NCBI GenBank assembly: GCA_963760285.1
Contig: CAVXCI010000001.1
Location: 2,067,289 to 2,131,288 of the forward strand
Origin: an uncultured Acidobacteriota bacterium
GTDB taxonomy: Bacteria > Acidobacteriota > Terriglobia > Acidiferrales > UBA7541
Direction: 5' to 3'
Length of the DNA: 64,000 nucleotides
Shown here: positions 36,445 to 59,516 of the stretch, piece by piece
How positions within the stretch are numbered: the stretch's first letter is position 1
Layout: each line of letters opens with the position of its first letter
Program-made: the position numbers and the translations under genes
The notes under the pieces: generated by a model
Told to the model about the DNA's origin: nothing
The model's database searches: none
The model's input: only the letters and a program-made list of their open reading frames with translations

Positions 36445-36618
36445 AAAAAGTGTCCCTATTAGAAAAGTGTATGTTATTGATTATGTGAGAGTTGCGGTTT
36501 TGCGACTGTCACATGTGTCCCTATTAGAAATTGTGGTTTTGGCCCTTTCTTCGGTGTTTGGACATAGTTCTGACTCATTGTCCCCGTTCAACAGAAAAAA
36601 TCAACAGCAGCTTCTGTA
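36445..36618 (+). repeat. 174-bp structured repeat element, copy L, with two internal 16-20-nt direct repeats gtgtCCCTattagaaa
   Basis: Conserved blocks aaaagtgt-NNNN-attagaaa, ttgatt, ttttgcgactgt, (a)catgtgt-NNNN-attagaaat, acatagttctgac and aaaaaatcaacagcagcttctgtaa. It aligns block-for-block, at about 75% identity, with the reverse complement of 59343-59516. Confidence 0.85.
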
Positions 36619-36744
36619 ATGCGGCGCCGGTCGCAGGGAAAACAGAACTGCGGGAGGCACAATGCCGAAAAAGGCTGGCGGCCTAAAGCCGCCGCTACAT
36701 GGCTATGCCGGACGCTACACCCTGCCATAAACAAAAATGGGCAG

Positions 36745-36768
36745 GAAAATCAACAGCAGGTTCTGTAA
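36745..36768 (+). repeat. Partial extra copy of the terminal block (aaaatcaacagcaGgttctgtaac) of the 174-bp element
   Basis: 23/24 identity to block D of copy L. Lies between copy L and the SIR2-like gene stop. Confidence 0.6.
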
Positions 36769-36819
36769 CGATTCTTAGGCCGGGACCTTCTCCCAAACGG
36801 GTGAGTTTATCAGCCCCGT

Positions 36820-37818
36820 CTATTCAGCAGCCAAGAAGTCTTCGAATCGCCCTCTACCAAGTGTCTCAATGCGTCGGAAACCCCGCGATGTGAACTCGTG
36901 TGCAATCTGGGTACCCCTCCCTCCGGAGAATATGGCGATCTGCGCGTCGCGATTGCATCGCCGGAATAGCAGATCTCTAGCCCTTTCGTCCGCATCAGGC
37001 ATGCTGTAGCCGATGATGACGATCTTGTCGGAAGAATTCAGGACGTCTCCAGCTTGCCCCCAGAGGGCGTTCCAGAAGGGTTCCCATTCGCGCCCACCAA
37101 TTGAGGTTCTTATGTAGAAGAACTTCCGGCGAGAGAGAGATATAAGGGCAGGCACTGCCGGAGATGTTTGTGTGCCACACAACGGGTCCGATATCTCGTT
37201 AGAGTAGGAAAAGAAGCCAAACTCTCGCTGAAGGATAACAGGTCGGTCAGGCAGAGATTTCGAACCGGCCTGAAAGGAACCCGTCATTCCCCCAAACACT
37301 GGTCCCCACCAATTGGTGCTGCCATGCAATTTCAAGACCTTGACGCTAGACGGAGGAATAGCATCGATACCGAGCCGAAAGCCGTACCCATCGCTGATTT
37401 CCCATATCCCAGCCTCTTTGAGCGCGTGCTCGCAGGCCAAGTCGTAGTTGAAAGTGATTACCACGTCGCCCGATCGTAGGTTGGTGCGCGCAAATTGATC
37501 GTAGAGTGGAGACGGGCCGTATTTCCGGTCATTGAAGAATTCAATGGTTGACAATAAAAGGGCTTGGCGACATGCGGCGCGCTCAGGTTCGCGCAGGGCT
37601 GCCGCTCGTGACAAGGGTGGGTACTCGTCGAGTTCTGTCAATACTTGTTCCAAGTCCGCCCTCTCTCCGTAGACCTCGCGGACAGTCGCAAGAGGGTTGT
37701 ACCAATGGTGTTCGAACTGCCTATGTGAGTACCAGGCGCACAATTCGCTCCACAGGTTGCGGGCAAGCGGATAACCGGCGTGGAGGGAAGCACCCGCACC
37801 AAGTATGTAGGTTGTCAT
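36820..37818 (-). CDS. SIR2_2-family (DHS-like NAD-binding fold) protein, 332 aa, stand-alone
   Basis: N-terminus YILGAGASLHAGYPLARNLWSEL and motifs VITFNYDLACEHAL (the family TTNYD motif) and VLKLHGSTNW. GC about 55% against roughly 65% for flanking genes. ATG at the complement of 37816-37818. Confidence 0.7.
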   Translation of the reverse strand: MTTYILGAGASLHAGYPLARNLWSELCAWYSHRQFEHHWYNPLATVREVYGERADLEQVLTELDEYPPLSRAAALREPERAACRQALLLSTIEFFNDRKYGPSPLYDQFARTNLRSGDVVITFNYDLACEHALKEAGIWEISDGYGFRLGIDAIPPSSVKVLKLHGSTNWWGPVFGGMTGSFQAGSKSLPDRPVILQREFGFFSYSNEISDPLCGTQTSPAVPALISLSRRKFFYIRTSIGGREWEPFWNALWGQAGDVLNSSDKIVIIGYSMPDADERARDLLFRRCNRDAQIAIFSGGRGTQIAHEFTSRGFRRIETLGRGRFEDFLAAE

Positions 37819-38021
37819 CAGTGCCCGTTCGTGTTCTGCTCTGTACTCGAAACACAGTCTTGCGCTGGTTGCCACCGACAGCTGCACTTATGCCGCGTCG
37901 TAACATCACGCTACGCCAGCGGAATCGGTGTGTCAATGCGGCGGGCGCCAGCCGATTGGACAAGCTGGCGGCGCGCGGACGGGGTTTGCGCGGGGGCGGG
38001 GATTTCCCTTAGGATTGAAGC

Positions 38022-39183
38022 ATGCACATTGAGGATTTGCAGCGGCATTTCACCGAGCTCCAGCAGCGCATCGAGACGGTGCGGAGCTTTCTTTGACGTT
38101 CCCCTGCACCGCCAGCGGCTGAGCGAGCTGGACGAAAAAGTTAACAACCCCGATCTGTGGTCCAATCCCGAAGAGGCGCAAGTTTTATTCCAGCGGCGCA
38201 AGCAGGCTTCCGAGCGCATCGAAGCGGACACCAAACTTCAGCGGTACGTCGGCGATCTCGAAACCTATTTCCATCTGGCGCAGGAAGAGACCGATCCGCA
38301 ACAGCGTGAATCGGTGCTGCGCGAGCTGACCGAAGAGCTGGCGCAGGCGGAGGCGTACACCTCGCAACTGGAAACGCAGACGCTTCTCGCCGGAGAAAGC
38401 GACGCGCTGAACGCCATCATGACCATCAAGCCCGGCGCGGGCGGTACGGAATCGCAGGACTGGGCGGAAATGCTTCTGCGCATGTACATGCGCTGGGCGG
38501 ACGGAAAGGGTTTTCGCACCACGGTGATTGATTCCACTCCCGGCGAGGAAGCGGGACTGAAACTGGCCACGGTGCGCATCGAAGGCGAAAATGCCTACGG
38601 ATTGCTGGTGGGAGAGAGCGGCGTCCATCGTTTGGTGCGCATTTCGCCGTTTGACCAGGCGGCGCGGCGGCACACTTCGTTTGCGTCCGTCTACGTGATT
38701 CCGGAAATTGACGACAAAATCGAAATCGTCATCAAGCCGGACGACATTCGCATCGATACTTTCCGCGCGGGCGGCGCTGGCGGCCAGCATGTGAACATGA
38801 CCGACTCGGCGGTGCGCATCACCCACTTCGCGTCCGGGATCGTGGTGCAGTGCCAGAACGAGCGCAGCCAGCACAAGAACAAGGACATGGCCATGAAGGT
38901 GCTGCGGTCACGGCTTTACGAATTCGAAATGGACAAGCGCCGCGAGGAGTCGCGCAAGCTGAACGCCTCCAAGGCGGATATCAGCTTCGGCAGCCAGATT
39001 CGGTCCTACGTTTTGCAGCCGTACCAGATTATTAAGGACCATCGCACGCGGCACGAGCGCGGCGACGTCCAAAAAGTGCTGGATGGCGACATTGACGACT
39101 TCATCCGCACTTTTCTGCTGTGGCGGCGCGACCCCGGCAAATTTGCCGCCGCGCAAGCCGCCGATGATGAGCTGGACGTCTGA
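38022..39183 (+). CDS. prfB: Peptide chain release factor 2, expressed via a programmed +1 ribosomal frameshift, join(38022..38096, 38098..39183)
   Basis: ORF0 is MHIEDLQRHFTELQQRIETVRSFL, ending at CTT TGA C (38091-38097) with an upstream GGAG. The +1 frame continues DVPLHRQRLSELDEKVNNPDLW...SPFDQ...GGQHVN (GGQ motif)...KDHRT. The ORF-track entry 37780-39183 is just the +1 frame artificially extended upstream. Confidence 0.9.
38091..38097 (+). other. RF2 autoregulatory +1 frameshift site (CUU UGA C)
   Basis: The sequence CTTTGAC follows 25 codons of prfB with an SD-like GGAG 5 nt upstream. This site is conserved across bacteria. Confidence 0.85.
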
Positions 39184-39414
39184 CCGCCTTGCCACGCTTC
39201 ATATGGGTGTGGCGATGGCCCCCGGGGCTTCCATTCGACTCCCGTTTGCGCCCCTTCCACCCCCAAATCTCGCCATTCAATGCGGCTAATTACAGTTCTG
39301 GCGTTCCGCGTTGACACGCTCCAAATCGCATGTTACCTTCGCATTTTCAGCAATTTCCGCCGTATTTGGGGATCCGAAAAATCAAAGAGCTTTGATCCGT
39401 GACAGGAGACAATT

Positions 39415-40596
39415 TTGGCCCAATCCTCTGAACGATTTCTGTTTACGTCCGAGTCCGTAACCGAAGGCCATCCCGATAAGATGGCCGACCAGATTTCCGA
39501 CGCCGTGCTGGATGCGGTGCTCACGCAGGACCCCTTCGGGCGCGTGGGTTGCGAGACGCTGCTGACCACCGGGCTGGTGGTCATCGCCGGTGAAATCACC
39601 ACCAAGGCGCATTTTGACTATTCCGGCATCGCCCGCGAAGTGATCCGCGAAATCGGATACACCGATTCCGACTACGGATTTGACGCCGATACCTGCGGGA
39701 TCATCACCGCCATCAAGCAGCAAAGCCCGGACATCGCCATGGGCGTGGATATCGGTGGGGCGGGCGACCAGGGCATGATGTTCGGCTACGCCTGCGATGA
39801 AACCAACGATTTAATGCCCATGCCCATCGAACTGGCGCACCGCCTCACGCGGCGTCTGGCGCACGTCCGCAAGGAAGGCCTGCTGGATTTTCTGCGGCCC
39901 GACGGCAAATCGCAGGTCACCGTGGAATACTTGAACGGCCGGCCGGAGCGCATTGATTGCGTTGTGGTTTCGTCGCAGCACAGCGATAAAGTTTCCGACA
40001 AGATTCTGCGCGAAGGCATCATCCGCGAGGTGATCAAGCCCGAGCTTCCCGCCCACATGCTGGACAGCCATACCAAGTACCACATCAATCCCACCGGGCG
40101 TTTCGTCACCGGCGGACCCATGGGCGACGCGGGGCTCACCGGGCGCAAAATTATCGTGGATACCTACGGCGGCTACAGCCGCCACGGCGGCGGCGCGCTT
40201 TCCGGCAAGGATCCAACCAAGGTGGACCGTTCCGCGTGCTACATCGCGCGGTACATCGCCAAGAATCTGGTGGCCGCGGGCGTGGCGCGCAGAGTGGAAG
40301 TGCAGCTGGCCTATGCCATCGGCGTGGCCGAGCCGGTTTCGGTGATGGCGGAGACATTCGGCACCGGAATGCTTCCCGACTGGCAGATTACGGAACTGAT
40401 TCGTTCCTTCTTCTCGCTGACGCCTCTCGGAATTATCGAAAGCCTTCAGTTGCGCCGGCCCATTTACCAGCAGACGGCTTCTTACGGCCATTTTGGACGG
40501 ACCGAGCCCGGCTTTAGCTGGGAACGGACCGACAAGGCGGAAGCCATCCGCCAGCAGGCGTCACAATTGAACGGAGCGGTTGCGGCCCACCGCTAG
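39415..40596 (+). CDS. metK: S-adenosylmethionine synthetase
   Basis: [22 protein letters not shown] and [17 protein letters not shown] motifs. TTG start after an AGGAGA SD. Confidence 0.9.
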
Positions 40597-41922
<1,326 letters not shown>

Positions 41923-41943
41923 TTTCCGCTCCACCAGTTCTCC

Positions 41944-43401
41944 ATGAGGGAATTCGCCGAATGGGCCATTGAAACCGCGCGCCTGCGCGGCGCGCGTTAT
42001 GCCGACGCGCGGGTGATGGACGTTCGCCAGCGGGACATCTCCACAAAGAACGGCGAAGTCGGCGCGCTGATGGAAAGCGAATCGCGCGGCATCGGCGTCC
42101 GCGTCCTGATGAACGGCGCGTGGGGATTTGCCTCCACCGACCGCCTTACGCGCGAAGGTGTGCAGGCTTGCGCGGCGCGCGCCGTGGCCATCGCCCGCGC
42201 ATCCGCGCGCGTCCGGCTGCATCAGGTAGTCCTGGCCGATGAGCAGGCCTTCGTGGATACCTGGCAGAATCCTTACATCAAGGATCCTTTTCGCGTTCCC
42301 GTGGAGCGTCAGTTGGAGTTGCTGCTGGCCGCGGACCGCGAAATGCGCGCTGTTTCCGGCGTGACGCTGGCGGAGGGCAGCATGTCCTTCCGGCGTATCG
42401 AGCAGATTTTCGTGTCCACGCTGGGCTCGGTGATCCGGCAGCGCAAGATGCAGTCCGGCGCGGGAATCACCGCCACCAGCTTTCGTAAAGACGAAATCCA
42501 GAAGCGCTCCTATCCCAATAGCGCTGGCGGCCAATACGCCTTGCAAGGCTACGAATTGGTGGAAGCCATGGACCTTCCCGCGCATGGCCGGCGCATCGGC
42601 GAAGAGGCCGTGGCGCTGCACTCCGCCGCGCAGTGTCCCGAAGGCGCGCGCACGGTTATCCTGGGCGCCTCGCAACTGGGCTTGCAGATTCACGAGTCCA
42701 TCGGCCATCCCATAGAACTGGACCGCGTTCTCGGCGTGGAAGCCAATTATGCGGGCATGAGTTTTCTCACCACGGAAAAACTGCGGCGGCTGCAATATGG
42801 CTCTGAAATTGTGAATGTGGTGGCCGACGCCCGGCTGGAGCATGGCGCGGGATTGGGGACGTTCGCCTATGACGACGAAGGCGTGCCCGCGCAATGCACT
42901 CCCATCATTACTAATGGCCTGTTCACCGGCTATCTCACCAGCCGCGAAACCGCTGCGGCCGTCGGTGAAAAACGTTCCGGTGGGACCATGCGCGCCGAAA
43001 GCTGGAACCGCGTGGCCATGATCCGCATGACCAACGTCAGCCTGCTGCCCGGCGCGTGGCGCTTCGAGGATTTAATCGCCGACACCGACGACGGAATTTT
43101 GATGGAGACCAATCACTCCTGGTCCATTGACGATCGTCGCTATCATTTTCAGTTTTCAACCGAAATTGGCTGGGAGATTCGCGGCGGCCGCAAAGCCCGC
43201 ATGTTGAAGAATTGCAGCTACAGCGGCATCACCACGGAATTCTGGTCTTCCTGCGACGCCATCTGCTCGCGCGATTACTGGACGCTGTGGGGCACGCCGA
43301 ATTGCGGCAAGGGACAGCCTCCGCAGACCATGGGCACCGGCCACGGTGCCGCGCCCGCGCGTTTTCGCAACGTGCGCGTGGGAGTGGCGTTCTCGCAATG
43401 A
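41944..43401 (+). CDS. tldD: TldD-family metalloprotease (peptidase U62)
   Basis: 485-aa U62/PmbA_TldD fold with a HExxxGH-like motif (HESIGHPIELD) and the C-terminal GTPNCGKG. Confidence 0.8.
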   Translation: MREFAEWAIETARLRGARYADARVMDVRQRDISTKNGEVGALMESESRGIGVRVLMNGAWGFASTDRLTREGVQACAARAVAIARASARVRLHQVVLADEQAFVDTWQNPYIKDPFRVPVERQLELLLAADREMRAVSGVTLAEGSMSFRRIEQIFVSTLGSVIRQRKMQSGAGITATSFRKDEIQKRSYPNSAGGQYALQGYELVEAMDLPAHGRRIGEEAVALHSAAQCPEGARTVILGASQLGLQIHESIGHPIELDRVLGVEANYAGMSFLTTEKLRRLQYGSEIVNVVADARLEHGAGLGTFAYDDEGVPAQCTPIITNGLFTGYLTSRETAAAVGEKRSGGTMRAESWNRVAMIRMTNVSLLPGAWRFEDLIADTDDGILMETNHSWSIDDRRYHFQFSTEIGWEIRGGRKARMLKNCSYSGITTEFWSSCDAICSRDYWTLWGTPNCGKGQPPQTMGTGHGAAPARFRNVRVGVAFSQ

Positions 43402-44819
43402 AGCCGCGCCAGCGCAAATCGCCCGCCCGTCCGCGCCGCGCCGCAGCCGCGCGCTCCGTTGCCGCGCACGCGATGGCCGGTCCGTCGGATGGTTTCGCCG
43501 AACTCCGCCGCATCGCCGAACGCATCCTGCATTTCAGTCCCGCACGCGAAACGGAAGTGGAAATCACTTCCCTGACGGACGCGCTTACGCGCTTCGCCAA
43601 CAATGGAATCACGCAGAACGTAGCCGAGGAAAATCGCCAGGTTTCCATCCGCGTGGTGGTGGACGGCCGCACTGCCCGCGCCACCACCAATAAGACCGAC
43701 GACCATTCGCTCCACCAGGTGGTGCAGTCCGCGATGGCGCTGGCGCGTTTCCAGCCGAAAAATCCGGAACTGTTGCACATGCCCGGCGCGCAAAAACAGC
43801 AGCCCGTCCGCCGCTTTTTTCCGAAGACTGCGGGAGCCACGCCCGAAGATCGCGCCGGCGTGGTGCGCGGCGTGGTGAGACTGGCAGCGGAACGCAAACA
43901 AACCGCCGCGGGGGTTTATTCGACCGGCTGGTCACAAACGGTATTCGCGAATTCGCGCGGACTCTTCGCGCAACATGGCGAAACCAAGGCGGAATTCTCC
44001 GTCACCATGATGGACGCGGATTCCTCCGGCTGGGCCAAAGCCACTTCGCCGGATGCGTCGTCACTCGACCCGCTGGCAATGGCGGGGCGCGCCAGCGAAA
44101 AAGCCGCCGCATCGCGCCAGCCCCGGGAGATTGCTCCCGGACATTACACCGTGATTCTGGAACCGGCGGCGGTTCTCGATCTTGTCGGGTTCCTCTTCTA
44201 CGATTTTGCCGCCACGGCGGTGAAGGATCAGCGCTCCTGTCTCACCGGCCGTATCGGCAAGCCGCTGTTCGGCTCCAACGTCACGCTCTGGGATGACGCC
44301 TATCATCCCCGGCAATCCGGTGTTCCATTCGATGGCGAAGGAATGCCGCGCCAGCGCGTCCTGCTGGTGGATCGCGGCGTGCCGCGCAATCTTGTCTACG
44401 CCCGCGCCACCGCGCGAAAAATGAAGGCGCGTCCCACCGGTCACGGATTTTCGCTGCCCAACGAATTCGGAGAAGCGCCCATGAATCTGGTTTTCGCCGG
44501 CGGGAACATCTCCGTGGAAAACATGGTGAGCCAGACGGAGCGCGGCATCCTGGCCACGCGCATGTGGTACATCCGCGAAGTGGACCCCTACGAAAAAATT
44601 ATGACCGGCATGACCCGCGACGGAACGTTCCTGGTGGAAAACGGGCACATCGTGTGCGGCATTCGCAATTTCCGCTTCAATCAGAGCCTCATCGCCATGC
44701 TCTCCGCTGTTGAAGAACTAGGCCCTCCCGTGCGCGCTTCGGGCGAAGAGTCATTCGACATGGTGGTTCCGGCGATGAAAGTCCGCGATTTCCACTTCAC
44801 CGAAGTCACCCGCTTCTAG
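43398..44819 (+). CDS. pmbA: PmbA/TldE-family protease partner of TldD
   Basis: U62 fold lacking the HExxxH motif. The ATG at 43398 overlaps the tldD stop (ATGA). The ORF-track start at 43212 overextends into tldD. Confidence 0.75.
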   Translation: MKPRQRKSPARPRRAAAARSVAAHAMAGPSDGFAELRRIAERILHFSPARETEVEITSLTDALTRFANNGITQNVAEENRQVSIRVVVDGRTARATTNKTDDHSLHQVVQSAMALARFQPKNPELLHMPGAQKQQPVRRFFPKTAGATPEDRAGVVRGVVRLAAERKQTAAGVYSTGWSQTVFANSRGLFAQHGETKAEFSVTMMDADSSGWAKATSPDASSLDPLAMAGRASEKAAASRQPREIAPGHYTVILEPAAVLDLVGFLFYDFAATAVKDQRSCLTGRIGKPLFGSNVTLWDDAYHPRQSGVPFDGEGMPRQRVLLVDRGVPRNLVYARATARKMKARPTGHGFSLPNEFGEAPMNLVFAGGNISVENMVSQTERGILATRMWYIREVDPYEKIMTGMTRDGTFLVENGHIVCGIRNFRFNQSLIAMLSAVEELGPPVRASGEESFDMVVPAMKVRDFHFTEVTRF

Positions 44820-44888
44820 GAGTTTGTTGAAATGCCGTGGCGCGCGCCACGGCGGGATAACCCGTTAAGGCAGCTCCTCCTCTACGAT

Positions 44889-50905: not shown

Positions 50906-52387
50906 ATGAAAATACTCTTTGTCGCACCGGAAGGCGTTCCATTCTCGAAGACTGGCGGATTGGCCGACGTGGTCGGCGCGCTGCCGCAGGCGCTGATTGA
51001 CCAGGGCCACGAAGCGGCCGTCCTGCTGCCGCGCTACCACGGAAATCCCACGGGAAAACAGGCGGCGCGCAGCCTGACCGTTCCGCTGGGCCGCGGACTG
51101 AGCCGCTTTCCCGCCATCGTGGATGCCGGGAAGCAGCAGGACGTGCCGTACTATCTGGTGGACGATCCCGCTTATTTTGACCGTCCCGGCCTCTATGGCG
51201 ACAAGTCCGGCGACTATCCGGACAACGCCGAGCGTTTTGCCGCCTTCAGCCGCGCGGCCATCGAATTTGCCAAGCACGTCTGGACTCCTGACGTGATTCA
51301 TTGCCACGATTGGCAGTCCGCGCTGGTGCCTGTCCTGCTGCGCACGGTTTACGCCGAGGATCCCGTGGTCAGCCAGATTCCCGTGGTGTTCACCATCCAC
51401 AACCTTGCGTATCAGGGTATTTTCGGCCGCGACGCGCTGGACCGCGCCGGCTTACCGGATTATCTCTTCGCGCTGCATGGGCTGGAATTCTGGGGCAATA
51501 TCAGCTACCTGAAAGGCGGGCTGATTTTTTCGGATTATCTCACCACCGTCAGCCGGAAATATGCGGAGGAGATTCAGACCCGGGAATTTGGCTACGGACT
51601 GGACGCGGTGATTCGCATGCGCGTGGATCATCTGGAAGGCATTCTCAACGGCGCGGATTACGCCGTCTGGGATCCCAAAGTGGACACCAGGATCGCATCG
51701 AAATATACGGCGCGATCCCTCTCCGGAAAGCAGAAGTGCAAGAAAGACCTGCTTCAAGTGATGGGCCTCTCCGAAGACAACATGAAGCGGCCCGTGGTGG
51801 GCATTGTTTCGCGATTCACGGATCAAAAGGGATTCGATCTGCTGGCCGAAGTCGCCGATGCCATGCTGAAGGAAGACCTGGCGCTGGTGGCGCTGGGCGC
51901 CGGCGATCCTAAATACCAGGATTTGTTCGCCGCGCTGGCCGCCCATGCTCCTGACCGCGTCGCGGTGAAAATCGCGTATGATGACACCCTGGCCCACAAA
52001 ATCGAAGCCGGCGCGGACATGTTCCTGATGCCGTCAAAATTTGAGCCGTGCGGATTGAATCAGATTTACAGCCTGCGCTATGGAACCGTCCCCGTGGTGC
52101 GCGCCACCGGCGGCCTGGACGACACCGTGGCGGAGTACAATCCGAAGACGGGCGAGGGAACCGGGTTCAAGTTCAGCGAATATTCAGGGCCGGCGCTTCT
52201 GGAATGCCTGAGCCAGGCGCTGGCCGTGTGCAAAGACCAAAAGGCGTGGAAGAAGATTCAGACACGCGGGATGGCCCAGGATTTTTCATGGAAAGCTTCC
52301 GCGGCGGCCTATGCGAAACTATACGAGCGGGCCCGCAAGGACCGAATCACACCGGCGCCCGCCGCATCTAAAGTAGCTGGTAAATAA
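50906..52387 (+). CDS. glgA: Glycogen synthase (ADP-glucose type, GT5)
   Basis: MKILFVAPEGVPFSKTGGLADVVGALP and the C-terminal SRFEPCGL motif. Confidence 0.9.
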   Translation: MKILFVAPEGVPFSKTGGLADVVGALPQALIDQGHEAAVLLPRYHGNPTGKQAARSLTVPLGRGLSRFPAIVDAGKQQDVPYYLVDDPAYFDRPGLYGDKSGDYPDNAERFAAFSRAAIEFAKHVWTPDVIHCHDWQSALVPVLLRTVYAEDPVVSQIPVVFTIHNLAYQGIFGRDALDRAGLPDYLFALHGLEFWGNISYLKGGLIFSDYLTTVSRKYAEEIQTREFGYGLDAVIRMRVDHLEGILNGADYAVWDPKVDTRIASKYTARSLSGKQKCKKDLLQVMGLSEDNMKRPVVGIVSRFTDQKGFDLLAEVADAMLKEDLALVALGAGDPKYQDLFAALAAHAPDRVAVKIAYDDTLAHKIEAGADMFLMPSKFEPCGLNQIYSLRYGTVPVVRATGGLDDTVAEYNPKTGEGTGFKFSEYSGPALLECLSQALAVCKDQKAWKKIQTRGMAQDFSWKASAAAYAKLYERARKDRITPAPAASKVAGK

Positions 52388-52435
52388 TCGCAACGGGCCG
52401 GGGTCCAGTTGCGTGAAGATTGAGGGCAACGAAAA

Positions 52436-52768
52436 ATGTCCAATTTAGCAGCGGTTACCGACGCGAATTTTCAGGCCGAAGTGATTGACGCCAGCCAGAC
52501 CCAGCCGGTGATGGTGGACTTCTGGGCGGAGTGGTGCCGGCCCTGCCACATGCTGTCGCCCACGGTGGAGGAACTCGCCACGGAGCACGCCGGCAAGCTG
52601 AAAGTGGTGAAGATGAACGTGGACGAAAACATCAATTCGCCGGGCAAGTTCAATATCCGCGGGATTCCCACGCTCCTGATTTTCAAGGGCGGTCAGGTGG
52701 CGGAGCAGATTGTGGGAGCGGTGCCCAAGGATCAGATCGAAAAAATCCTGCAGCGGCACCTGAGCTGA
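52436..52768 (+). CDS. trxA: Thioredoxin
   Basis: WCRPCH active site (a WCxPC variant) in a 110-aa thioredoxin fold. Confidence 0.85.
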   Translation: MSNLAAVTDANFQAEVIDASQTQPVMVDFWAEWCRPCHMLSPTVEELATEHAGKLKVVKMNVDENINSPGKFNIRGIPTLLIFKGGQVAEQIVGAVPKDQIEKILQRHLS

Positions 52769-52986
52769 TTCCACTTGCCAGGCGGAGGCGCGCCCGTCCC
52801 TATATTGGTGACTGGCCGGCGGCGGTGCATGGCGCAAAATTCGCGCCAGGCTTGTCATCCACCGCCGCGAGGCTTAGACTCAGACCCGGCATTCACTGCC
52901 TGGACCATTCCGAAATGACTCACAATTACTAAGTGCGCGTGGAAAAGTGTGAAATCGAAATTGGAAATTAAAATGGATGACGCCGA

Positions 52987-54285
52987 ATGAGAGCCATTGC
53001 TGTGGTCGGCGCCCAGTGGGGCGACGAGGGCAAAGGCAAGGTGGTTGACTACCTCGCCGGTTCTTTCGATCTGATTGCGCGATACGCCGGCGGCCACAAT
53101 GCCGGCCATACAGTGATCGCCAATGGGCACCGCTTTGTTCTTCAATTGATTCCTTGCGGAATCCTGCGTCCCGGAAAGAAAGCCCTGATCGGCCCCGGAG
53201 CGGTGATTGATCCCGCCGCGCTGGTGGCGGAAATCGAAAATCTGGAAAAAGCCGGCGTCGAAGTGACCGGCCGCCTGTTCCTCAGCAATCGCGCCCACGT
53301 GATTTTTCCTTATCATCGCCAGATGGAAGAGGCTTCCGAAGCCGCGCTGGGCGAGGCCAAGATCGGCACCACGCATCGCGGCATCGGTCCGGCCTATGAA
53401 GACAAGGCCGCGCGCCGCGGATTGCGCATTTGCGATCTGGTGGACCCAGAAAAATTCCGCGCGCATCTGAAAGCGGCGCTGAAGGAAAAAAGCCACATCG
53501 CCTCCACGGCGTTCGGCGTGAAATTGGACGAAGCGGGAATCGAGGAAACTTATCTGCGTCTGGCCGACCGCATTCGCGGTTACGTCACCGACGTGGCCGC
53601 GCTGCTGGATCGCGCGCTGGAAGCGGGCCGGAACGTCCTGTTCGAAGGCGCGCAGGGCACCATGCTGGACCTGGACCACGGGACCTATCCGTTCGTGACC
53701 TCGTCCAGCGCCACGTCCGGCGGCGCCGCCACAGGACTGGGCATTCCTCCCACGCGGGTGACCGGAGTTGTCGGCGTGACCAAGGCTTACACCACGCGCG
53801 TGGGCAGCGGACCGTTCCCCACGGAAATGCCCGACCTCGAAGCCAAAGGACTGCGCGACCGCGGCAAGGAATATGGAGCGGTCACCGGCCGACCGCGGCG
53901 GTGCGGCTGGCTGGACCTGGAAATGCTCCGCTACGCAAAAATGGTCAACGGAATTGGTTCCCTGGTGGTCACCAAGCTGGACGTTTTCGACGCCCAGGAA
54001 AACATTCAGGCCTGCGTGGGCTATCGCTACAAAGGCTCCAAGCTCACGGAAATGCCGCCGGATATTGAAACGCTCGCGCAGGTGACTCCCGAATACCGCA
54101 AGCTGCACGGCTGGCGGCGCAGCACCGAAGGCGTTTCCGACGCCGGCGATCTTCCCGAAGCCGCGCGCGATTATCTGAAATTTATTTCCGACGCGCTGGA
54201 AGTGGAAATCGGGATGATTTCCACCGGACCGGAACGCGAAGCCACCATCCTGCCGCCGGGGACCACTCTCGCCAGCTGGCTCTGA
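52987..54285 (+). CDS. purA: Adenylosuccinate synthetase
   Basis: GAQWGDEGKGKVVD P-loop, GIGPAYEDK and GTTHRG motifs. Confidence 0.9.
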   Translation: MRAIAVVGAQWGDEGKGKVVDYLAGSFDLIARYAGGHNAGHTVIANGHRFVLQLIPCGILRPGKKALIGPGAVIDPAALVAEIENLEKAGVEVTGRLFLSNRAHVIFPYHRQMEEASEAALGEAKIGTTHRGIGPAYEDKAARRGLRICDLVDPEKFRAHLKAALKEKSHIASTAFGVKLDEAGIEETYLRLADRIRGYVTDVAALLDRALEAGRNVLFEGAQGTMLDLDHGTYPFVTSSSATSGGAATGLGIPPTRVTGVVGVTKAYTTRVGSGPFPTEMPDLEAKGLRDRGKEYGAVTGRPRRCGWLDLEMLRYAKMVNGIGSLVVTKLDVFDAQENIQACVGYRYKGSKLTEMPPDIETLAQVTPEYRKLHGWRRSTEGVSDAGDLPEAARDYLKFISDALEVEIGMISTGPEREATILPPGTTLASWL

Positions 54286-54290
54286 CGAAC

Positions 54291-55505
54291 ATGGTCACGT
54301 GGCAGGAGGCGCGGCGCATCATTGAAGAGGCCGTTCGCGCGCGCTCCACGCCCACCGCCATCGAGTCCCTTCCGCTGGAAGACGCGCTGGGCCGCGTGCT
54401 CGCGGAGACCATTCACGCCGACCGCGACTATCCTCCCTTTCGCCGCGCCACGCGCGATGGTTACGCGGTTCTTTCCGCGGATTTGCGGAAATCACCCCGC
54501 ACGCTTTCTTTGGCCGGCGAAGTGCGCGCGGGGCAGTCGTTCGCTCGCGCGCTGCGTACCGGAGAGTGCATCGCCATCATGACCGGCGCTCCTGTTCCCG
54601 AAGGCGCGGACGCTGTTGTGATGCGCGAATTCACGCGTGTGGACGGCGAGGCAATTATTTTTGAACGCACCGCCGCGCCCGGCGAGAATATTGTTCTCCG
54701 CGGCAGTGAATCGAAGGCTGGCCAGGAATTGCTCCTGCCGGGAACGCATTTGAACTACGCGTCGCTGGCGCTGGCCGCGCAGGTTGGACATACGCCCGTG
54801 CAGGTCCATGAGCGCCCGCGCGTGGCCGTTCTTTCCACCGGCGATGAAGTGATTCCCCACGCGGATACGCCCGGCCCATTTCAAATTCGCAACAGCAATT
54901 CGCTGGCGCTTTCCTTGCTGGCGAAAATCTCCGGCGCGGAGCCGGTGGCGCTGGGCAACGCTCCCGACGAGCGCGATGCGCTTCGCGAAGGCATCGAGCA
55001 CGGCCTGGAAGAGGACGCGCTGATCCTGAGCGGCGGCGTTTCCATGGGGAAGTATGATTTGGTGGAAGAAGTTCTCGCAGTATTAGGCGCGGAGTTTTTT
55101 TTCGACGCCGTGGCCATTCGTCCCGGAAAGCCCGCGGTCTTCGGCTACTGCCAGGGCAAGCCGGTGTTTGGACTGCCGGGAAATCCGCTGTCCACCATGG
55201 TGACGTTTGAGCTTTTCGTCCAGCCCGCGCTGGATATTTTGAGCGGTATGGACGTGCGCCCGCTGCCGTTCGTCGGCGCAAAGATGGCGCGGGAGTCGAA
55301 AGAGAATCCGGCCATGGCGCATTTTGTCCCCGCGCTGATGACGTGGGAAGGGGATCAGCCCGTCGTGGAAGAGCTGCCCTGGCAGGGTTCCGGCGACATG
55401 GCGGCGTTCACGCGCGCCAATTGCCTGTTGTACGTTCCACAGGGACAATCGCTGGTCGCCGAAGGCCAGCCGGTTCAGGTACTCTTGCGGCGGGGCGCAT
55501 TTTGA
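54291..55505 (+). CDS. moeA: Molybdopterin molybdenumtransferase
   Basis: MoeA N-terminal domain plus an MoCF-biosynthesis domain (GGVSMGKYD) plus a C-terminal domain. Confidence 0.8.
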   Translation: MVTWQEARRIIEEAVRARSTPTAIESLPLEDALGRVLAETIHADRDYPPFRRATRDGYAVLSADLRKSPRTLSLAGEVRAGQSFARALRTGECIAIMTGAPVPEGADAVVMREFTRVDGEAIIFERTAAPGENIVLRGSESKAGQELLLPGTHLNYASLALAAQVGHTPVQVHERPRVAVLSTGDEVIPHADTPGPFQIRNSNSLALSLLAKISGAEPVALGNAPDERDALREGIEHGLEEDALILSGGVSMGKYDLVEEVLAVLGAEFFFDAVAIRPGKPAVFGYCQGKPVFGLPGNPLSTMVTFELFVQPALDILSGMDVRPLPFVGAKMARESKENPAMAHFVPALMTWEGDQPVVEELPWQGSGDMAAFTRANCLLYVPQGQSLVAEGQPVQVLLRRGAF

Positions 55506-55507
55506 CC

Positions 55508-56014
55508 ATGCCGAAACTTTCGCACTACGGCCGCAAAGGCAACGTTCGCATGGTGGACGTGAGCGCCAAGCCGGAAACCACGCGCATCGCGCGCGCCCGC
55601 GGATTTATCGCCATTGCGCCGGCCGCGCTTCGCCTGGTGCGCAAGCTGAAAAACCCCAAGGGCAATCCGCTGGAAATCGCGCGCATCGCGGGAATCGCCG
55701 CGGCCAAGCGAACGTCCGAACTGATTCCGCTGTGCCATCCGCTTCTGCTGACGCACATTGATTTGAAAGCGGAGTTGCGCCCCCGGGGCGTCGAGATTCG
55801 CGCCGAAGTCCGAACCAACGGGCCCACCGGCGTGGAGATGGAGGCGCTGACCGCCGTGGCCGTCGCCGCGCTCACCATTTATGATATGTGCAAGGCCGCG
55901 GACCGCTCCATGAAGATTGGCGAGATTTATCTCGAGGAAAAAATCGGCGGCCGAAGCGGCCATTACGTCCGCCGCGCGAAACCGGCAGAATCGCGCGTGA
56001 AGAAGACGAACTGA
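55508..56014 (+). CDS. moaC: Cyclic pyranopterin monophosphate synthase accessory protein MoaC
   Basis: MVDVSAK...LIPLCHPL...GVEMEALTAVAVAALTIYDMCKA. The ATG is 2 nt after the moeA stop. The ORF-track N-terminal extension is not real. Confidence 0.85.
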   Translation: MPKLSHYGRKGNVRMVDVSAKPETTRIARARGFIAIAPAALRLVRKLKNPKGNPLEIARIAGIAAAKRTSELIPLCHPLLLTHIDLKAELRPRGVEIRAEVRTNGPTGVEMEALTAVAVAALTIYDMCKAADRSMKIGEIYLEEKIGGRSGHYVRRAKPAESRVKKTN

Positions 56015-56270
56015 GCACCTGAAGAAGGGCTGCGAGTAATCGGGTGTCAGTCACAGCCTAATGCATGAGAGAGGCACAGTGTGCCACGTGTGGCCCCCCC
56101 CTCGGGTTCTTTTGATCGCGTGAGAATTCATATATCAAAATTGATGTTAGATTCAAAATCTTACACAAGTCTCCGGTTGTAGTATATCTTTTTTGTGGTA
56201 GACTGTGACACGAGAATCTAATTGGCGGTGGCATTGGTTTGGATTTCAATCCGAGGAAGAGGGCTGTCCA

Positions 56271-56615
56271 GTGCAGACTCACTTTGACAGCCTGCCGGAC
56301 GCCCACAGGGACGAAATCCTTGACCTCCTCGGCTATCTACAGAACGCGATACAGAGCCTTTGGAGAAGGCCAGAATTTGACCCCTTGGATGGTGAATATG
56401 GGATTTCAGAGATCAGACCAGCCGACATCCGCGACGACGAAGGCGTTACATATTACCGAATTTACGGTTACTTTGGGCCATGTGAGGGCGAATACACATT
56501 TCTGCACTTGACGGCCAAAAGGGTGAAAAATGACAGGGATGGCAAGAAGATCGCTAGGGAACGCCTTGACAGAATCCGATGTGGAAAGGCAACCGTCCAC
56601 AAATTTGAATTCTAG
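56271..56615 (+). CDS. Gp49/HigB-like toxin of the RelE/ParE superfamily (PF05973-like)
   Basis: The ...ISEIRPADIRDDEGVTYYRIYGYFGPCEGEYTFLHLTAKRVKNDRDGKKIARERLDRI C-terminal pattern (yRi.y.f....i.LLh.F.KK.qk.p..ei.iA.kRl) matches the family. GTG 56271 follows a GAGGAAGAGGG SD. The ORF is open from 56205. Confidence 0.6.
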   Translation: MQTHFDSLPDAHRDEILDLLGYLQNAIQSLWRRPEFDPLDGEYGISEIRPADIRDDEGVTYYRIYGYFGPCEGEYTFLHLTAKRVKNDRDGKKIARERLDRIRCGKATVHKFEF

Positions 56616-57306
56616 AAAAAGCCTTTGGGAGAGATTTCGCAGAGGTGTGGAGACACGGGCTAGGTTCGTTGAGTCGCATATTAGCAAAACGATTGCGTTC
56701 CAGATCAGAGGCTTGCGAGAAGAAAAGGGTTGGAGCCAAGAGAAGTTTTGTGAAATGTCGGGGATGAATCAGAATGCTATTTCCAGACTGGAGAATCCCA
56801 GATACGGCAGACCCACAATCACGACTCTCAAGAGGATTGCGGCAGTGTTCGATGTGGCGTTGGTAGTCCGGTTTGTACCATTTAGCCAATTGGTAGATTG
56901 GGTTAGCGGGACGCTGCACCCTGACAAGGGGCTTTCCGCTGATACTTTTAGGGTGCCCAATTTTGCCGACGAAGAAAAGGCGCTACAGTTTAAGGACGTG
57001 GCAGAATTCCAATGGCACGTTCCGATGGCGGAGAGCAATGAGCAATTCTTGGCAATGATTGATCGTTATAATCGCCTAAATTCGCCGATGGAATATTCTC
57101 CTGGCGAGACGCTGGTGGAAGAAATTGTCCATAGAGTACAAGACAGGCTAAGAAAATCGAGTGCAAACTCAGGGGCTCTCCAGAAGGTCGCTTTTCCTGG
57201 AGGCGCTGCCTCACCGAGTCTCCAAGCACAGAAAGGGAAACTCATCGATTTTCCTAAGCACGTTCCAAAGACGCTTTCACTTTTTGCCAATGAACATGAC
57301 CAATGA
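56530..57306 (+). CDS. HTH-XRE family regulator (HigA-like antitoxin) with a ~130-aa C-terminal extension
   Basis: Helix-turn-helix region RFVESHISKTIAFQIRGLREEKGWSQEKFCEMSGMNQNAISRLENPRY. The gene overlaps the 3' end of the toxin gene. The C-terminal extension is unassigned and the start codon is uncertain (56530, 56539 or 56647). Confidence 0.55.
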   Translation: MTGMARRSLGNALTESDVERQPSTNLNSRKSLWERFRRGVETRARFVESHISKTIAFQIRGLREEKGWSQEKFCEMSGMNQNAISRLENPRYGRPTITTLKRIAAVFDVALVVRFVPFSQLVDWVSGTLHPDKGLSADTFRVPNFADEEKALQFKDVAEFQWHVPMAESNEQFLAMIDRYNRLNSPMEYSPGETLVEEIVHRVQDRLRKSSANSGALQKVAFPGGAASPSLQAQKGKLIDFPKHVPKTLSLFANEHDQ

Positions 57307-57335
57307 CTGCAAGCGATTGCGGGAGGAAAATCATA

Positions 57336-57731
57336 ATGGACATCAAAGAGACCGAATCGAATAAACCAAAAACCATACTTCAAGTTTCGCCGGATTTTTT
57401 CTCAGAGTATGCCAATAACGCATACCTGCAGGGTAGTGCATGGGACCTGACCATAGTCTTTGGTCAACTAAATCAGAAGTTTGAACCTGCAGTGGCTGAT
57501 TGGTTCGGGCAGGTCACCATGCCGTGGGCGCAAGCAAAAATACTCAGCTACATTCTTCGGATGCATATTATCGCGCATGAATTGCAGAACGGAAAAATTT
57601 CTATACCGAAGAGTGTCCTTCCGCAAGGAATTCCCGACCCAACCCCCGAAGAGATACAGCGGGACCCTATGGCGCCGGAAGTGGTGAAAAAACTGCAAGA
57701 AATTCACGCTGAGCTCGTTGCCAGTCTTTAA
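57336..57731 (+). CDS. DUF3467-family protein
   Basis: YANNAYLQGSAWDLTIVFGQL...MPWAQAKILSYILRMHIIAHELQNGKISIP matches the DUF3467 pattern (YAN......efvLdFg...lsP.hAK.L...L..n...YE..fG.I). The ATG at 57336 has a GGGAGG SD. Confidence 0.55.
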   Translation: MDIKETESNKPKTILQVSPDFFSEYANNAYLQGSAWDLTIVFGQLNQKFEPAVADWFGQVTMPWAQAKILSYILRMHIIAHELQNGKISIPKSVLPQGIPDPTPEEIQRDPMAPEVVKKLQEIHAELVASL

Positions 57732-57789
57732 GCCTATAACCAATTCATCGGGTAAGGCAGCACTCAAGCTTAAACCTAGGATAGAATCC

Positions 57790-58284
57790 ATGCGAGTTGC
57801 CATTCTCACCATCAGCGATTCTGTAAGTTCCGGTAAATCCGAAGACCGCTCCGGGGCGGCGCTTCAGGCCGAATGCGCGGCGCGCGGCATGGACGTGGTG
57901 CATACCGGCGTTTTGGCGGATGACGACTCCGCGATTCGCGCGCGGTTGAGCGAGCTCTGCGACAGTGGGACTGCCGACCTGATTCTCACCACCGGCGGCA
58001 CTGGGCTTGGTCCGCGGGACGTAACTCCCGAAGCCACGCAGGCTGTCGCTGAACGGCTGGTCCCCGGCCTGCCGGAGTTGATGCGCCGCGCCGGTTATGC
58101 GGCGAATCCTCGCGCCGCGCTTTCGCGTGGAGTGGCCGCGCTGCGCGGCAATTCTTTGATCGTCAATCTGCCCGGCAGCCCCGAAGGCGCCGTGGAGTCG
58201 TTCTACGCCATCGCCGGCGTGCTCGCCCACGCCATTGACGTCATCCACGGCGCCCGCCACGACCCCAATCCGAAAGCAGTTTGA
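57790..58284 (+). CDS. mogA: Molybdenum cofactor biosynthesis protein MogA/MoaB
   Basis: MoCF-biosynthesis domain with AILTISD and LILTTGGTGLGPRDVTPEA motifs. Confidence 0.8.
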   Translation: MRVAILTISDSVSSGKSEDRSGAALQAECAARGMDVVHTGVLADDDSAIRARLSELCDSGTADLILTTGGTGLGPRDVTPEATQAVAERLVPGLPELMRRAGYAANPRAALSRGVAALRGNSLIVNLPGSPEGAVESFYAIAGVLAHAIDVIHGARHDPNPKAV

Positions 58285-58358
58285 CGGCAAACACGAGGGG
58301 CCCCGATTGGCGCCGATGTCCAGCCCGTGCCGCAAGCAGAAGAAAGGTGTTTTGACCC

Positions 58359-59138
58359 GTGCGGATTGTAATCGATAGCAACCAGCTCGTTTCGTTCCTC
58401 GACAAAATAGACCGAACTGATGCATACCAGCGAGTCACGTTGGCACCATACGTGTTTGTCGACGTGATGCTGCACCCGCACGCGCAGAAGTTGATAACAC
58501 GATTGCGATCTTTCGACATTCTGGTTGGCCATGAGCCTTCGGATGCCTTGGCGGGGATCGCTGGACTTGACGAAGAAGATATACGCGCCTTCACACCCTA
58601 CAACGGGGAGTTCGAACTGCCGATTCGCCTAACCCGCAAAGATGTTTCAATAGCGCAGAATGTTAAGGAGAGGCACCGAGTGTTCGGGGCAAACATGTTC
58701 AATCGCGCCCAGCTTTTCCGCAACCATCTGAGAAATGAGGGTCTGAAGGACAAGTTCTCCGGCTTTTCGGAGGCACTTGAATTACTGGGGCCGTCCTTCT
58801 TCCAGTCGTTCGTATTCAACTCAATTTCCTACAAGGGCTCAAGACCACTCACGGTGTCTGACGAAAAGACGCTATACACCGCGGTGATGGATAATCGTTA
58901 TTTCTCTCGGTACTTTAGAATGATCTTCTTCTACATAATCAGCTATTCACGGATGTGGAAGAATCAAACACAGAATTTTGATCCCTCCGATCGTGTTGAC
59001 GACTGGACTGATATCACTCTGCCCTTCTATGCGGCCGACGGCGATATCATCTTAACTGCGGACAAAAAGCTTCGGGCCGCGATCGGGGCGGTTGAGGCTT
59101 CGGACGCCGTCCATGTGAGGACGGCTCAGGAACTCTAG
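58359..59138 (+). CDS. Hypothetical protein with a PIN-like N-terminus, 259 aa, low GC
   Basis: N-terminus MRIVIDSNQLVSFL resembles PIN beta-1 with an Asp at position 6, and a C-terminal DITLPFYAADGDIILTADKKL is reminiscent of the PIN C-terminal acidic cluster. GC about 48%. GTG start after an AGAAAGGTG SD. Confidence 0.4.
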   Translation: MRIVIDSNQLVSFLDKIDRTDAYQRVTLAPYVFVDVMLHPHAQKLITRLRSFDILVGHEPSDALAGIAGLDEEDIRAFTPYNGEFELPIRLTRKDVSIAQNVKERHRVFGANMFNRAQLFRNHLRNEGLKDKFSGFSEALELLGPSFFQSFVFNSISYKGSRPLTVSDEKTLYTAVMDNRYFSRYFRMIFFYIISYSRMWKNQTQNFDPSDRVDDWTDITLPFYAADGDIILTADKKLRAAIGAVEASDAVHVRTAQEL

Positions 59139-59342
59139 CCCTTTAACTTGTTAGGCTGGACTGAACTGTTTGTTTCCAGGACTCGCCCCGACCTGCTCTC
59201 CGAGTTCACGGCACAGAGCTAAGGACTATTCCCGCGTAGCGCGTCGAGAATCGATCGGGAATATGCGCGGGCAGCGGTTCAACGGTTGCCCAGCAGTCCT
59301 AATGGCGATGCCGCCGCATGGGCTCTCCGCGCGCATTCAGCG

Positions 59343-59516
59343 TTACAGAAGCTGCTGTTGATTTTTTCCGCGAAATTCTGACAATCGGTCAGAACTATGC
59401 CCAGACGGCGGGAACAGGCGCAAAATGGCGATTTCTAATCGCTACACTTTTTACAGTCGCAAAACGCTAACTCCCGCGAAATCAACCACATCCACATTTC
59501 TAATCGCTACACTTTT
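59343..59516 (-). repeat. 174-bp structured repeat element, copy R, inverted relative to copy L, with two internal direct repeats tttctaatCGCTacac(tttt)
   Basis: The reverse complement aligns block-for-block with 36445-36618. The 4 variable nucleotides of the 20-mer are identical in both internal repeats of a copy but differ between copies (CCCT in L, AGCG in R on the same reading). Confidence 0.85.

Follow-up and report, generated by a model that had tools for sequence, protein, structure and literature searches.

A block-conserved AT-rich repeat beside two acquired defense-type genes in an acidobacterial chromosome: a putative array of protein-binding sites

In a 64-kb window, the whole stretch of DNA analyzed here from a 2.3-Mb contig, we found two full copies (A and B) of a 218-nt noncoding element in opposite orientation and 22.7 kb apart, together with one solitary example of its terminal motif (Table 1). 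With low confidence, we read the element as a lineage-restricted, DNA-level platform of putative protein-binding sites that resembles a recombination-site (att) arm with its core, probably either a relic or a platform that is used in trans. Protein binding by the element, and any role in recombination, are what we infer from its architecture.

Table 1 Coordinates of the element copies, their internal features, and the neighboring genes.
Feature	Position	Strand	Description
Element copy A	36405..36622	+	218-nt noncoding repeat, AT-rich, GC 0.41
Element copy B	59340..59557	-	218-nt noncoding repeat, AT-rich, GC 0.47
Copy A direct repeat 1	36450..36465	+	GTGTCCCTATTAGAAA; pattern GTGT[CCCT]ATTAGAAA
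Copy A direct repeat 2	36515..36530	+	GTGTCCCTATTAGAAA; 65 nt from repeat 1
Copy B direct repeat 1	59496..59516	-	AAAAGTGTAGCGATTAGAAAT, 21 nt; 16-nt pattern GTGT[AGCG]ATTAGAAA at 59497-59512
Copy B direct repeat 2	59431..59451	-	AAAAGTGTAGCGATTAGAAAT; 65 nt from repeat 1; GTGT[AGCG]ATTAGAAA at 59432-59447
Terminal motif of copy A, invariant 26 nt	36594..36619	+	GAAAAAATCAACAGCAGCTTCTGTAA
Terminal motif of copy B, invariant 26 nt	59343..59368	-	Located by pattern search
Solitary third terminal motif	36746..36770	+	AAAATCAACAGCAGGTTCTGTAACG; one mismatch, at the center of the dyad
Terminator-like hairpin (intrinsic) for the SIR2-like gene	36677..36693	-	GGCGGCTTTAGGCCGCC then T-run; between the solitary motif and copy A
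SIR2-like gene, neighbor of copy A	36820..37818	-	332 aa in public records; longest ORF to 37887; GC 0.55
PIN-like gene, neighbor of copy B	58359..59138	+	259-aa PIN-fold protein, GC 0.51

A repeat search of the window returned a single inverted pair for the element, which spans the two 218-nt extents in Table 1 and is 74% complementary. The preliminary description had likewise reported two inverted copies, and its 174-nt coordinates fall inside the full extent; the solitary terminal motif had been overlooked. Upon ungapped, in-register alignment of A and B, we found 162 of the 218 positions identical, with 56 mismatches and no indels. Identity was 100% in nine blocks, the longest identical run being 26 nt, and about 54% between the blocks, and transversions outnumbered transitions. 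Because so many substitutions have accumulated with no indels, with nine invariant blocks and with this excess of transversions, the copies are old, and both block sequence and spacing are constrained. Similarity drops off sharply right after the TGTAA end, such that in copy A it is gone 3 nt past the terminal motif, while on the outer side of the pair weak similarity runs on for ∼18 nt more with a 1-nt shift. Each copy forms a discrete AT-rich block (GC 0.41–0.47) within GC-rich intergenic DNA (0.59–0.72). Since locus A is 100% identical in an independent assembly (JGI contig L022), the element is no assembly artifact. No helical-phase periodicity was seen in its conservation.

In both copies, a pair of direct repeats is spaced exactly 65 nt apart, for which 0.03 matches are expected by chance. 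The true repeat is 16 to 21 nt long; extension to 34 nt fails in register. Within it, a 4-mer is identical in both sites of one copy, and three of its four positions differ between the copies, in the same way at both sites, a covariation with a chance probability that we roughly estimate at ∼5e-4. These homogenized bases (CCCT/CCCT and AGCG/AGCG) had been noticed before and were recovered by our pattern search, and the earlier suggestion of paired protein-binding sites is still their best reading, as putative sites. A and B agree at every base of blocks GTTTTGCGACTGT and CATAGTTCTGAC and of the 26-nt end GAAAAAATCAACAGCAGCTTCTGTAA. The terminal motif includes a near-palindrome with halves ACAGCAG and CTTCTGT, although its dyad is weak (six of seven pairs in the inner 14 bp, 6/11 in 11-nt arms). 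The solitary motif lies in direct orientation 127 bp from the motif of copy A and 50 bp from the SIR2-like stop, and has no counterpart at locus B. Two Logan contigs from one run both end at the same terminal-motif position, which is compatible with sequence variants branching there. By eye, copy B also has a DnaA-box-like sequence (7/9 positions) that is absent from copy A.

Copy A sits between a DM9-repeat gene (stop 36234) and the SIR2-like gene, and copy B between the PIN-like gene and zwf (start 59943), so that in both loci the element adjoins low-GC acquired genes. The stops of the SIR2-like (36820) and PIN-like (59138) genes are each ∼200 bp from the motif end of the element; the arrangement described previously, with the element following its gene and oriented alike relative to it at both loci, is thus confirmed from the ORF positions. 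That these neighbors are acquired, defense-type genes is supported by their GC of 0.51 to 0.55 versus 0.605 for the window and by homologues in varied contexts (more than 1000 for the SIR2-like gene). The defense cargo proposed earlier therefore stands in kind, with qualifications on its family labels. The SIR2-like protein matches PADLOC SIR2 (E = 2e-8 over residues 25–194) and reaches 23.7 bits against Pfam SIR2_2, just under the 24.5 cut-off, while several homologues carry a precomputed PF13289 match. The PIN-like protein has no sequence-family match at all; its label holds by fold comparison, which predicts a PIN fold with conserved acidic residues and a helical insertion of ∼100 aa within it. 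The two ∼200-bp spacers between gene and element are unrelated (P = 0.98) and of native GC (0.59–0.62), and therefore gene and element are separate AT-rich blocks rather than one imported unit.

The 22.7-kb interval contains prfB, metK, ahcY, tldD/pmbA, a kinase, ksgA, glgA, purA, moeA, moaC, and moaB, and housekeeping genes also lie outside the pair, with the dcw cluster on one side and zwf/ackA on the other. Among the ORFs of the 64-kb window we found no recombinase, integrase, resolvase, transposase, or Rep genes, and the window has no cas genes. The search suggested previously for a nearby tyrosine or serine recombinase or a RAYT-like transposase thus came back empty within 64 kb, and, as had been stated, the pair is not a composite transposon, given its housekeeping interior and the lack of a transposase in the whole window.

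Further copies beside accessory genes of related genomes, another earlier suggestion, did not turn up in the accessible collections: the element had no copy in reference genomes, JGI metagenomes, viral contigs, plasmids, phages, or protein libraries, and a scan of the viral collection with the long repeat pattern gave no match. At homologue loci compared by nhmmer and blastn, it was absent beside PIN homologues of 56% and 42% identity and a SIR2 homologue of 57%, a comparison that left out a 59% SIR2 homologue, whose DNA stops 16 bp past the gene, and the closest PIN homologues (61%). An element confined to these two loci, with neither RNA nor recombination evidence, had been named as the outcome that would count against the original model, and this is the picture in the accessible data.

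An alternative that we regard as unlikely is that the copies are paralogous small-RNA genes or cis-regulatory modules, in which the repeats are duplicated seeds or protein-titration sites, or that they hold an antisense promoter into the 3′ end of the SIR2/PIN genes. A discrete AT-rich island with block conservation would fit such a module, as would repeated identical segments suited to duplicated seeds and an orientation toward the 3′ ends of genes that are both potentially toxic. However, Rfam gave no match at gathering thresholds over the whole window, and at E ≤ 10 around copy A only chance-level matches (E ≥ 0.2), none of them inside the element. Consensus folding by RNAalifold equaled column-shuffled controls (z of +0.17 forward and −0.12 reverse, with the limited power of two sequences), and the two-sequence alignment held four compensatory pairs against a null mean of 4.0. 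Single-sequence RNA folds reached z-scores of only −1.8 to +0.2 and differed between A and B. The covariation check proposed for the element hence gave no conserved-structure signal on either strand of these two sequences, and its label as structured was not sustained. A consensus scan found no promoter or terminator within the element. The best conserved hexamer pair, TTGATT-16-GACAAT on the reverse strand (8/12), would speak weakly for a promoter but was equaled in 25% of shuffles (P = 0.25), and a terminator-like hairpin ∼50 nt past copy B on that strand has no equivalent at copy A. Moreover, paralogous small RNAs at 74% identity normally have loop indels, and here there are none. With Rfam, folding, terminator, and promoter searches all null or nonsignificant, the 3′ small-RNA or terminator module of the preliminary description finds no support. 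As for coding, A and B share no open reading frame, and the mismatches show no codon periodicity (p = 0.52).

We also judge it unlikely that the element is a decayed nonautonomous mobile element (a MITE, an IS end, or a multi-site transposon end), now inert. Like MITEs and REP/BIME sequences, it is a short noncoding intergenic repeat without a gene of its own, dispersed here beside acquired genes. It has one sharp boundary, and the contig breaks at the motif could mean more genomic copies. Ends of the Tn7, Mu, and Tn402 types typically have, within one end, several identical sites specific to their cognate transposase, a pattern that the element would fit. On the other hand, the repeat search found no inverted repeat within the element or at its ends, there are no palindromic units, and no target-site duplication could be read by eye in the flanks. 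The window has no transposase, and the sharp ends face each other, such that transposons would run outward into the dcw cluster and zwf/ackA. Inert DNA would not retain nine invariant blocks without a single indel at 26% divergence, and in place of a typical MITE or REP family we see two full copies in the window, very diverged and conserved block-wise.

That the copies are left over from an old duplication or replicative inversion, and matter today as sequences through which the 22.7-kb segment could invert by homologous recombination, seems to us very improbable. Inverted copies do flank a chromosomal segment, a geometry known from intramolecular replicative transposition. However, the longest identity is 26 nt within 74%, which does not exceed the minimum that RecA-dependent exchange usually requires; contig L022 has only the arrangement of the window, at locus A; and the invariant blocks and co-varying sites would be left unexplained. 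The inversion raised earlier is thus conceivable, but the short identity and the lack of an isomer in the few contigs available speak against it.

Still harder to credit is the model from which the preliminary description started, in which the two genes are cassettes, integron-like or other, and the element is their attC-like 3′ recombination site. An attC is an imperfect palindrome whose single-stranded hairpin (R″-L″…L′-R′) is recognized by IntI (PMC8946536). Both loci do pair an acquired, defense-type and promoterless-looking accessory gene with a conserved noncoding element ∼200 bp downstream in fixed orientation. However, when each strand of each copy was folded as DNA, no end-to-end stem formed (z of −1.65, −1.09, +0.95, and −1.17) and the folds differed between the copies, so the attC hairpin is absent, and no R″/R′ boxes could be seen by eye. 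There is neither an integrase nor an array, only two units in opposite orientation and 22.7 kb apart, and no terminal inverted repeats bound the element. The terminator of the SIR2-like gene sits between the gene and copy A, homologues of both genes occur in other genomes without the element, and a neighboring low-GC island (56205–57731) has no copy. Together with the unrelated, native-GC spacers, the missing hairpin, integrase, and array largely refute the cassette model. Least probable of all is an orphan CRISPR-like mini-array (repeat-spacer-repeat) or a relic of an iteron-type replication origin: two direct repeats at 65-nt spacing, homogenized within a copy, and the DnaA-box-like sequence of copy B would suit it, but the repeat is only 16 to 21 nt versus 23 to 47 nt for CRISPR, the intervening 44 to 49 nt are homologous between the copies and so are not an independently acquired spacer, cas and rep genes are lacking in the window, and the viral-collection scan was null.

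Under the binding-site reading, the element would act as double-stranded DNA, a fixed-geometry site array for sequence-specific proteins. Its parts would be a pair of identical 16- to 21-bp sites with 65-bp spacing, several further invariant boxes, and, at one end, a 26-bp partly dyad-symmetric site able to stand alone. Constraint on both blocks and spacing, where coding and RNA-structure explanations fail, points to such an array at the sequence level, and the co-varying 4-mers resemble multiple sites for one cognate protein. Copies A and B may be related arrays that have diverged so that each suits its own variant of the cognate protein, which would account for a 4-mer shared within a copy and different between copies.

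The closest architecture would be one recombination-site arm joined to a crossover core, as in attL/attR, attI1, and cer/psi. The lambda-type attP of tyrosine integrases combines arm-type sites with a core. By analogy, a best-conserved part at one extreme end, plus a solitary 25-nt version, matches core-with-arm and core-only forms. The likeness to attL/attR extends to an arm of ∼190 bp with repeated identical sites in direct orientation (two per copy, at the fixed 65-bp spacing), to a shared ∼25-bp core at the end with abrupt loss beyond it, to a core-only version comparable to attB, and to AT-richness; the site sequence would be specific to the cognate protein. In contrast to attL/attR, the element has no cognate integrase in the window and no partner site in direct orientation bounding an island, as the only directly repeated motif pair encloses 127 bp. 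The core dyad is weak, and arm and acquired genes flank the core on different sides, whereas classical attL/attR would have both on one side. Two copies are few enough for their position beside acquired genes to be coincidental, and since no other copy turned up in any collection searched, nothing indicates past or present recombination at the site.

Other systems share parts of this layout. The integron attI1 comprises a simple site (L/R) and direct repeats DR1 and DR2 (PMC8946536), and so resembles the element in having its crossover site at the edge, two direct-repeat accessory sites upstream of that site, and variable cargo past the edge. However, attI1 is ∼65 to 70 bp long and lies beside intI with its cargo pointing away, whereas the element is 218 bp long without intI, and its cargo points toward the site, one gene per site and no array. 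In cer/psi, a ∼28-bp core likewise ends ∼180 to 200 bp of accessory DNA, and in the pdif modules of Acinetobacter plasmids, small accessory or toxin-antitoxin modules lie between inverse short sites and are mobilized by a host recombinase whose gene is elsewhere (PMC6449649); unlike pdif, the inverse motifs here enclose 22.7 kb of housekeeping genes and not a module. A Xer site has 28 bp (11 + 6 + 11) with XerD and XerC arms and palindromic inner parts (PMC6449649). We rejected the terminal motif as a Xer site: its inner ACAG/CTGT dyad with a 6-bp center fits that layout loosely, but its best match covers 11 to 12 positions (of 28 in Escherichia coli and Bacillus subtilis dif, of 30 in cer), which does not improve on shuffled sequence (null mean, 11.7).

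As att-like binding arrays, the copies would mark junctions of native chromosome with small acquired genes. Because the window has no recombinase, they would either be relics or serve in trans as sites for an enzyme whose gene lies elsewhere. A more specific version, which we find improbable, is that the element is an undescribed recombinase-in-trans capture platform of this acidobacterial lineage. Here, a ∼220-bp landing pad would use its two cognate-specific sites and further boxes to bring a recombinase, host-encoded or distant, onto the 26-bp motif. Single-gene defense modules such as the SIR2-like and PIN-like genes would be inserted or exchanged beside that motif, and one such event would have left the solitary motif as its scar.

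We found a single long inverted repeat in the window, whose two 218-nt arms (copies A and B) are 74% complementary and align in register with 56 mismatches and no indels. The pair is real and had been accurately reported in the preliminary description, whose 174-nt coordinates fall inside these arms. Locus A was also found at 100% identity in a JGI contig, which excludes an assembly artefact. The copies share nine identical blocks of 6 nt or more, the longest being the terminal 26-mer GAAAAAATCAACAGCAGCTTCTGTAA; a 26-nt identical run would have P ∼0.02 if the 74% identity were uniform. Similarity between the copies stops ∼3 nt past the common ...CTTCTGTAA. A third, solitary copy of this terminal motif, missed by the preliminary description, lies 127 bp from the copy A motif and 50 bp from the SIR2 stop. 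Inside copy A, two direct repeats of the form GTGT-CCCT-ATTAGAAA stand exactly 65 nt apart, and inside copy B two 21-nt repeats of the form GTGT-AGCG-ATTAGAAA stand at exactly the same distance, a pattern for which 0.03 matches are expected by chance. The sites are thus identical within each copy and differ between copies in the same way. Divergence between copies A and B is 26%, with more transversions than transitions, and the pair is old.

In run ERR10755941, two short Logan contigs (L018, 1667-1693, and L019, 3513-3543, corresponding to window 36744 and 59367) stop at the same motif position, 8 nt past GTTGA, and the JGI contig passes straight through locus A. The shared stop suggests branching of the assembly graph at this point, caused by strain variants or further copies; it is compatible with sequence variants branching at the motif and supports nothing further.

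Features of the window, with observations on each
Feature	Position (nt)	Orientation	Observation
Copy A	36405-36622	plus	Between the DM9-repeat protein gene (stop 36234) and the 3′ end of the SIR2-like gene
Copy B	59340-59557	minus	Between the 3′ end of the 259-aa (PIN-like) protein gene and zwf
Solitary terminal motif	36746-36770	direct to copy A motif	25 nt, one mismatch
SIR2-like gene	36820-37818	minus	
259-aa (PIN-like) protein gene	58359-59138		
Low-GC island	56205-57731		Between moaC and moaB; GC 0.49; no element copy
DM9-repeat secreted protein gene	34378-36234		
Short tandem DNA repeat	35256-35333		Encodes a proline-/tyrosine-rich GYPPP linker in the DM9-repeat protein
Tandem duplication	22660-22899		2 x 120 nt, 93% identity, within an ORF (22265-22903, minus) without Pfam match
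prfB frameshift site	38020-38100		Classical programmed +1 site (CTT TGA C) following a short initial frame; noticed while reading the SIR2-prfB intergenic region
ORF, 177 aa	46544-47077	minus	In the housekeeping interval; no Pfam match; slightly low GC (0.57); not near an element copy
ORF, 137 aa	52445-52858	minus	In the housekeeping interval; no Pfam match; not near an element copy

Nine invariant blocks at exact spacing, the lack of any indel despite 26% divergence, the absence of coding or RNA-fold signal, internal sites that co-vary within copies, and an invariant, sharply bounded end that is also found alone lead us to propose that the element may work as double-stranded DNA, with protein-binding sites arrayed in a fixed geometry. 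The co-varying 4-mers would then be explained by a single cognate protein for each copy. By analogy, the nearest known architecture might be one half, arm plus core, of a site-specific recombination site, as in lambda-type attL/attR, attI1 and its DR1/DR2 (PMC8946536) or cer/psi-type accessory sequences plus core; the solitary motif would be the core-only form. We hold this assignment only tentatively, because no recombinase lies nearby, the dyad symmetry of the motif is weak, the acquired genes sit on the side of the core opposite to that expected of a classical attL/attR, and there is no sign of recombination. The preliminary description had suggested looking for a nearby recombinase; none is encoded anywhere in the 64-kb window, nor is a transposase, Cas or Rep protein. 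A Xer site was rejected since the likeness of the motif to dif and cer is at the level of shuffled sequence. The dyad of the motif is present solely in the three motif copies, so a dispersed operator was dropped as well. Conservation showed no helical periodicity after multiple-testing correction.

A paralogous sRNA or antisense-promoter module would be another reading, which we consider rather unlikely. RNAalifold proposed a long-range helix in which three pairs are compensatory, and the best promoter-type hexamer pair kept in both copies is TTGATT-16-GACAAT on the reverse strand. The helix was dropped because 500 column shuffles of the two-copy alignment gave the same consensus-fold energy (z = +0.17 forward, -0.12 reverse) and a mean of 4.0 compensatory pairs against 4 observed. 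The covariation check put forward in the preliminary description thus yielded no excess, and single-copy folds of A and B are unlike each other. At gathering thresholds Rfam gave no match in the window, and around copy A there were only chance-level matches; no tRNA or tmRNA is present. The element therefore did not prove to be "structured" in the sense of a structured RNA. A consensus scan found neither promoter nor terminator inside it, and a conserved promoter was dropped since the hexamer pair occurs in 25% of shuffles (P = 0.25). Coding sequence or a pseudogene was likewise ruled out: the 66-codon frame open in copy A is interrupted by three stops in copy B, the two copies share no open frame, and the mismatches lack codon periodicity (15/19/22, p = 0.52). 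The spurious 66-aa ORF of copy A had no match among 1.84 billion protein representatives. A reverse-strand 13-codon ORF seen by eye in both copies (ATG to TAA) was dropped at an estimated chance probability of ∼0.35.

We regard a decayed mobile-element end or MITE as unlikely. At the outer boundary we noticed by eye a TGGGCGG likeness to Tn7-like ends, but a 5-bp duplication and tns genes are both absent. Counting against a MITE, the repeat search of the window found no terminal inverted repeats of the element and reading of the flanks by eye found no target duplication. Searches for further copies, which covered the source genome only within the window, were negative. The 19-base motif core gave 17 single matches in GTDB (one genome per species) in unrelated taxa, none accompanied by another block and hence attributable to chance; such exact-match scans rely on the motif being conserved, and the species itself is not in the reference set. 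Using 22 specified bases, we obtained two matches in JGI metagenomes, both within AT-rich coding sequence and thus also chance. Four patterns (the motif, the long repeat, CATAGTTCTGAC..ATTGTC and the double repeat) each gave none in the IMG/VR viral collection, and blastn in distant mode found no copy in plasmids and phages. Among the fetched PIN, SIR2 and Zwf homologue loci, nhmmer and blastn matched only the same strain (the JGI contig of locus A and the two Logan contigs).

The source is an Acidobacteriota chromosome, here on a 2.3-Mb contig, and its best Zwf relatives, with 82-84% identity, bear the names Candidatus Acidiferrum or Acidiferrales. With zwf as a synteny anchor, these closest relatives are not syntenic, and gene order around zwf differs between them. 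One related organism of the same JGI sample (contig L032; its Zwf is 84% identical) has a gene for a phage-type integrase (3574-4734) ∼1.4 kb downstream of zwf. The left half of our window is the dcw cell-division cluster, and the 22.7 kb between the copies hold prfB, metK, ahcY, tldD/pmbA, a Ser/Thr kinase gene, ksgA, glgA, purA, moeA, moaC and moaB. The low-GC island within this interval probably represents a toxin-antitoxin-type insertion, with genes for a 258-aa HTH protein of the XRE family and a DUF3467 protein beside a weak Gp49/HigB-like ORF. That the pair is a mere duplication relic serving as an inversion substrate seems very improbable.

Slightly less credible still is the gene-cassette model of the preliminary description, in which each low-GC gene and its element form a unit. 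In its favor, both copies adjoin the 3′ end of a low-GC gene at a distance of ∼200 bp and in equal relative orientation. Against a physical unit, the two gene-element spacers are unrelated (P = 0.98) and have genome-typical GC (0.59-0.62, compared with 0.41-0.47 for the element and 0.51-0.55 for the genes), and the SIR2 gene's own terminator sits between the gene and copy A. Furthermore, we found no trace of the element at the loci of PIN homologues (56 and 42% identity) or of a SIR2 homologue (57%). Homologues of both genes occur in varied contexts, which marks them as mobile single genes, and they move without the element. Only 17 sequences make up the family of the 259-aa protein, which matches no Pfam, PADLOC or NCBIfam model and has a predicted PIN fold with a helical insertion of ∼100 residues; no antitoxin gene lies upstream of it. 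A degenerate second motif noticed by eye in the PIN spacer was rejected (P = 0.23-0.73). An attC site has to form an imperfect palindromic fold as single-stranded DNA (PMC8946536); because DNA folds of both copies on both strands contain no end-to-end stem of this type, attC was rejected too.

Least probable of all is a CRISPR-like or iteron relic: despite the paired direct repeats, a CRISPR mini-array was rejected because the repeats span only 16-21 nt and the inter-repeat sequence is homologous between copies, and extension to a CRISPR-like 34-nt repeat fails in register. The probability left over falls to none of the listed explanations.

Judged from its sequence, the element falls into the broad class of dispersed non-coding repeats, as an orphan restricted to one lineage and built like a putative protein-binding site array. 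The main value of this result is negative, in that the data speak against an integron-like cassette system, a structured RNA or a transposon. The co-variation of its two internal sites offers a simple handle on the putative binding protein. The element would matter if it recurs at the borders of different accessory genes, in the rest of the genome or in sister strains, or if rearrangement occurs at the 26-nt motif. Either finding would point to a new route for single-gene defence modules into the core chromosome of poorly studied soil Acidobacteriota without a linked integrase.
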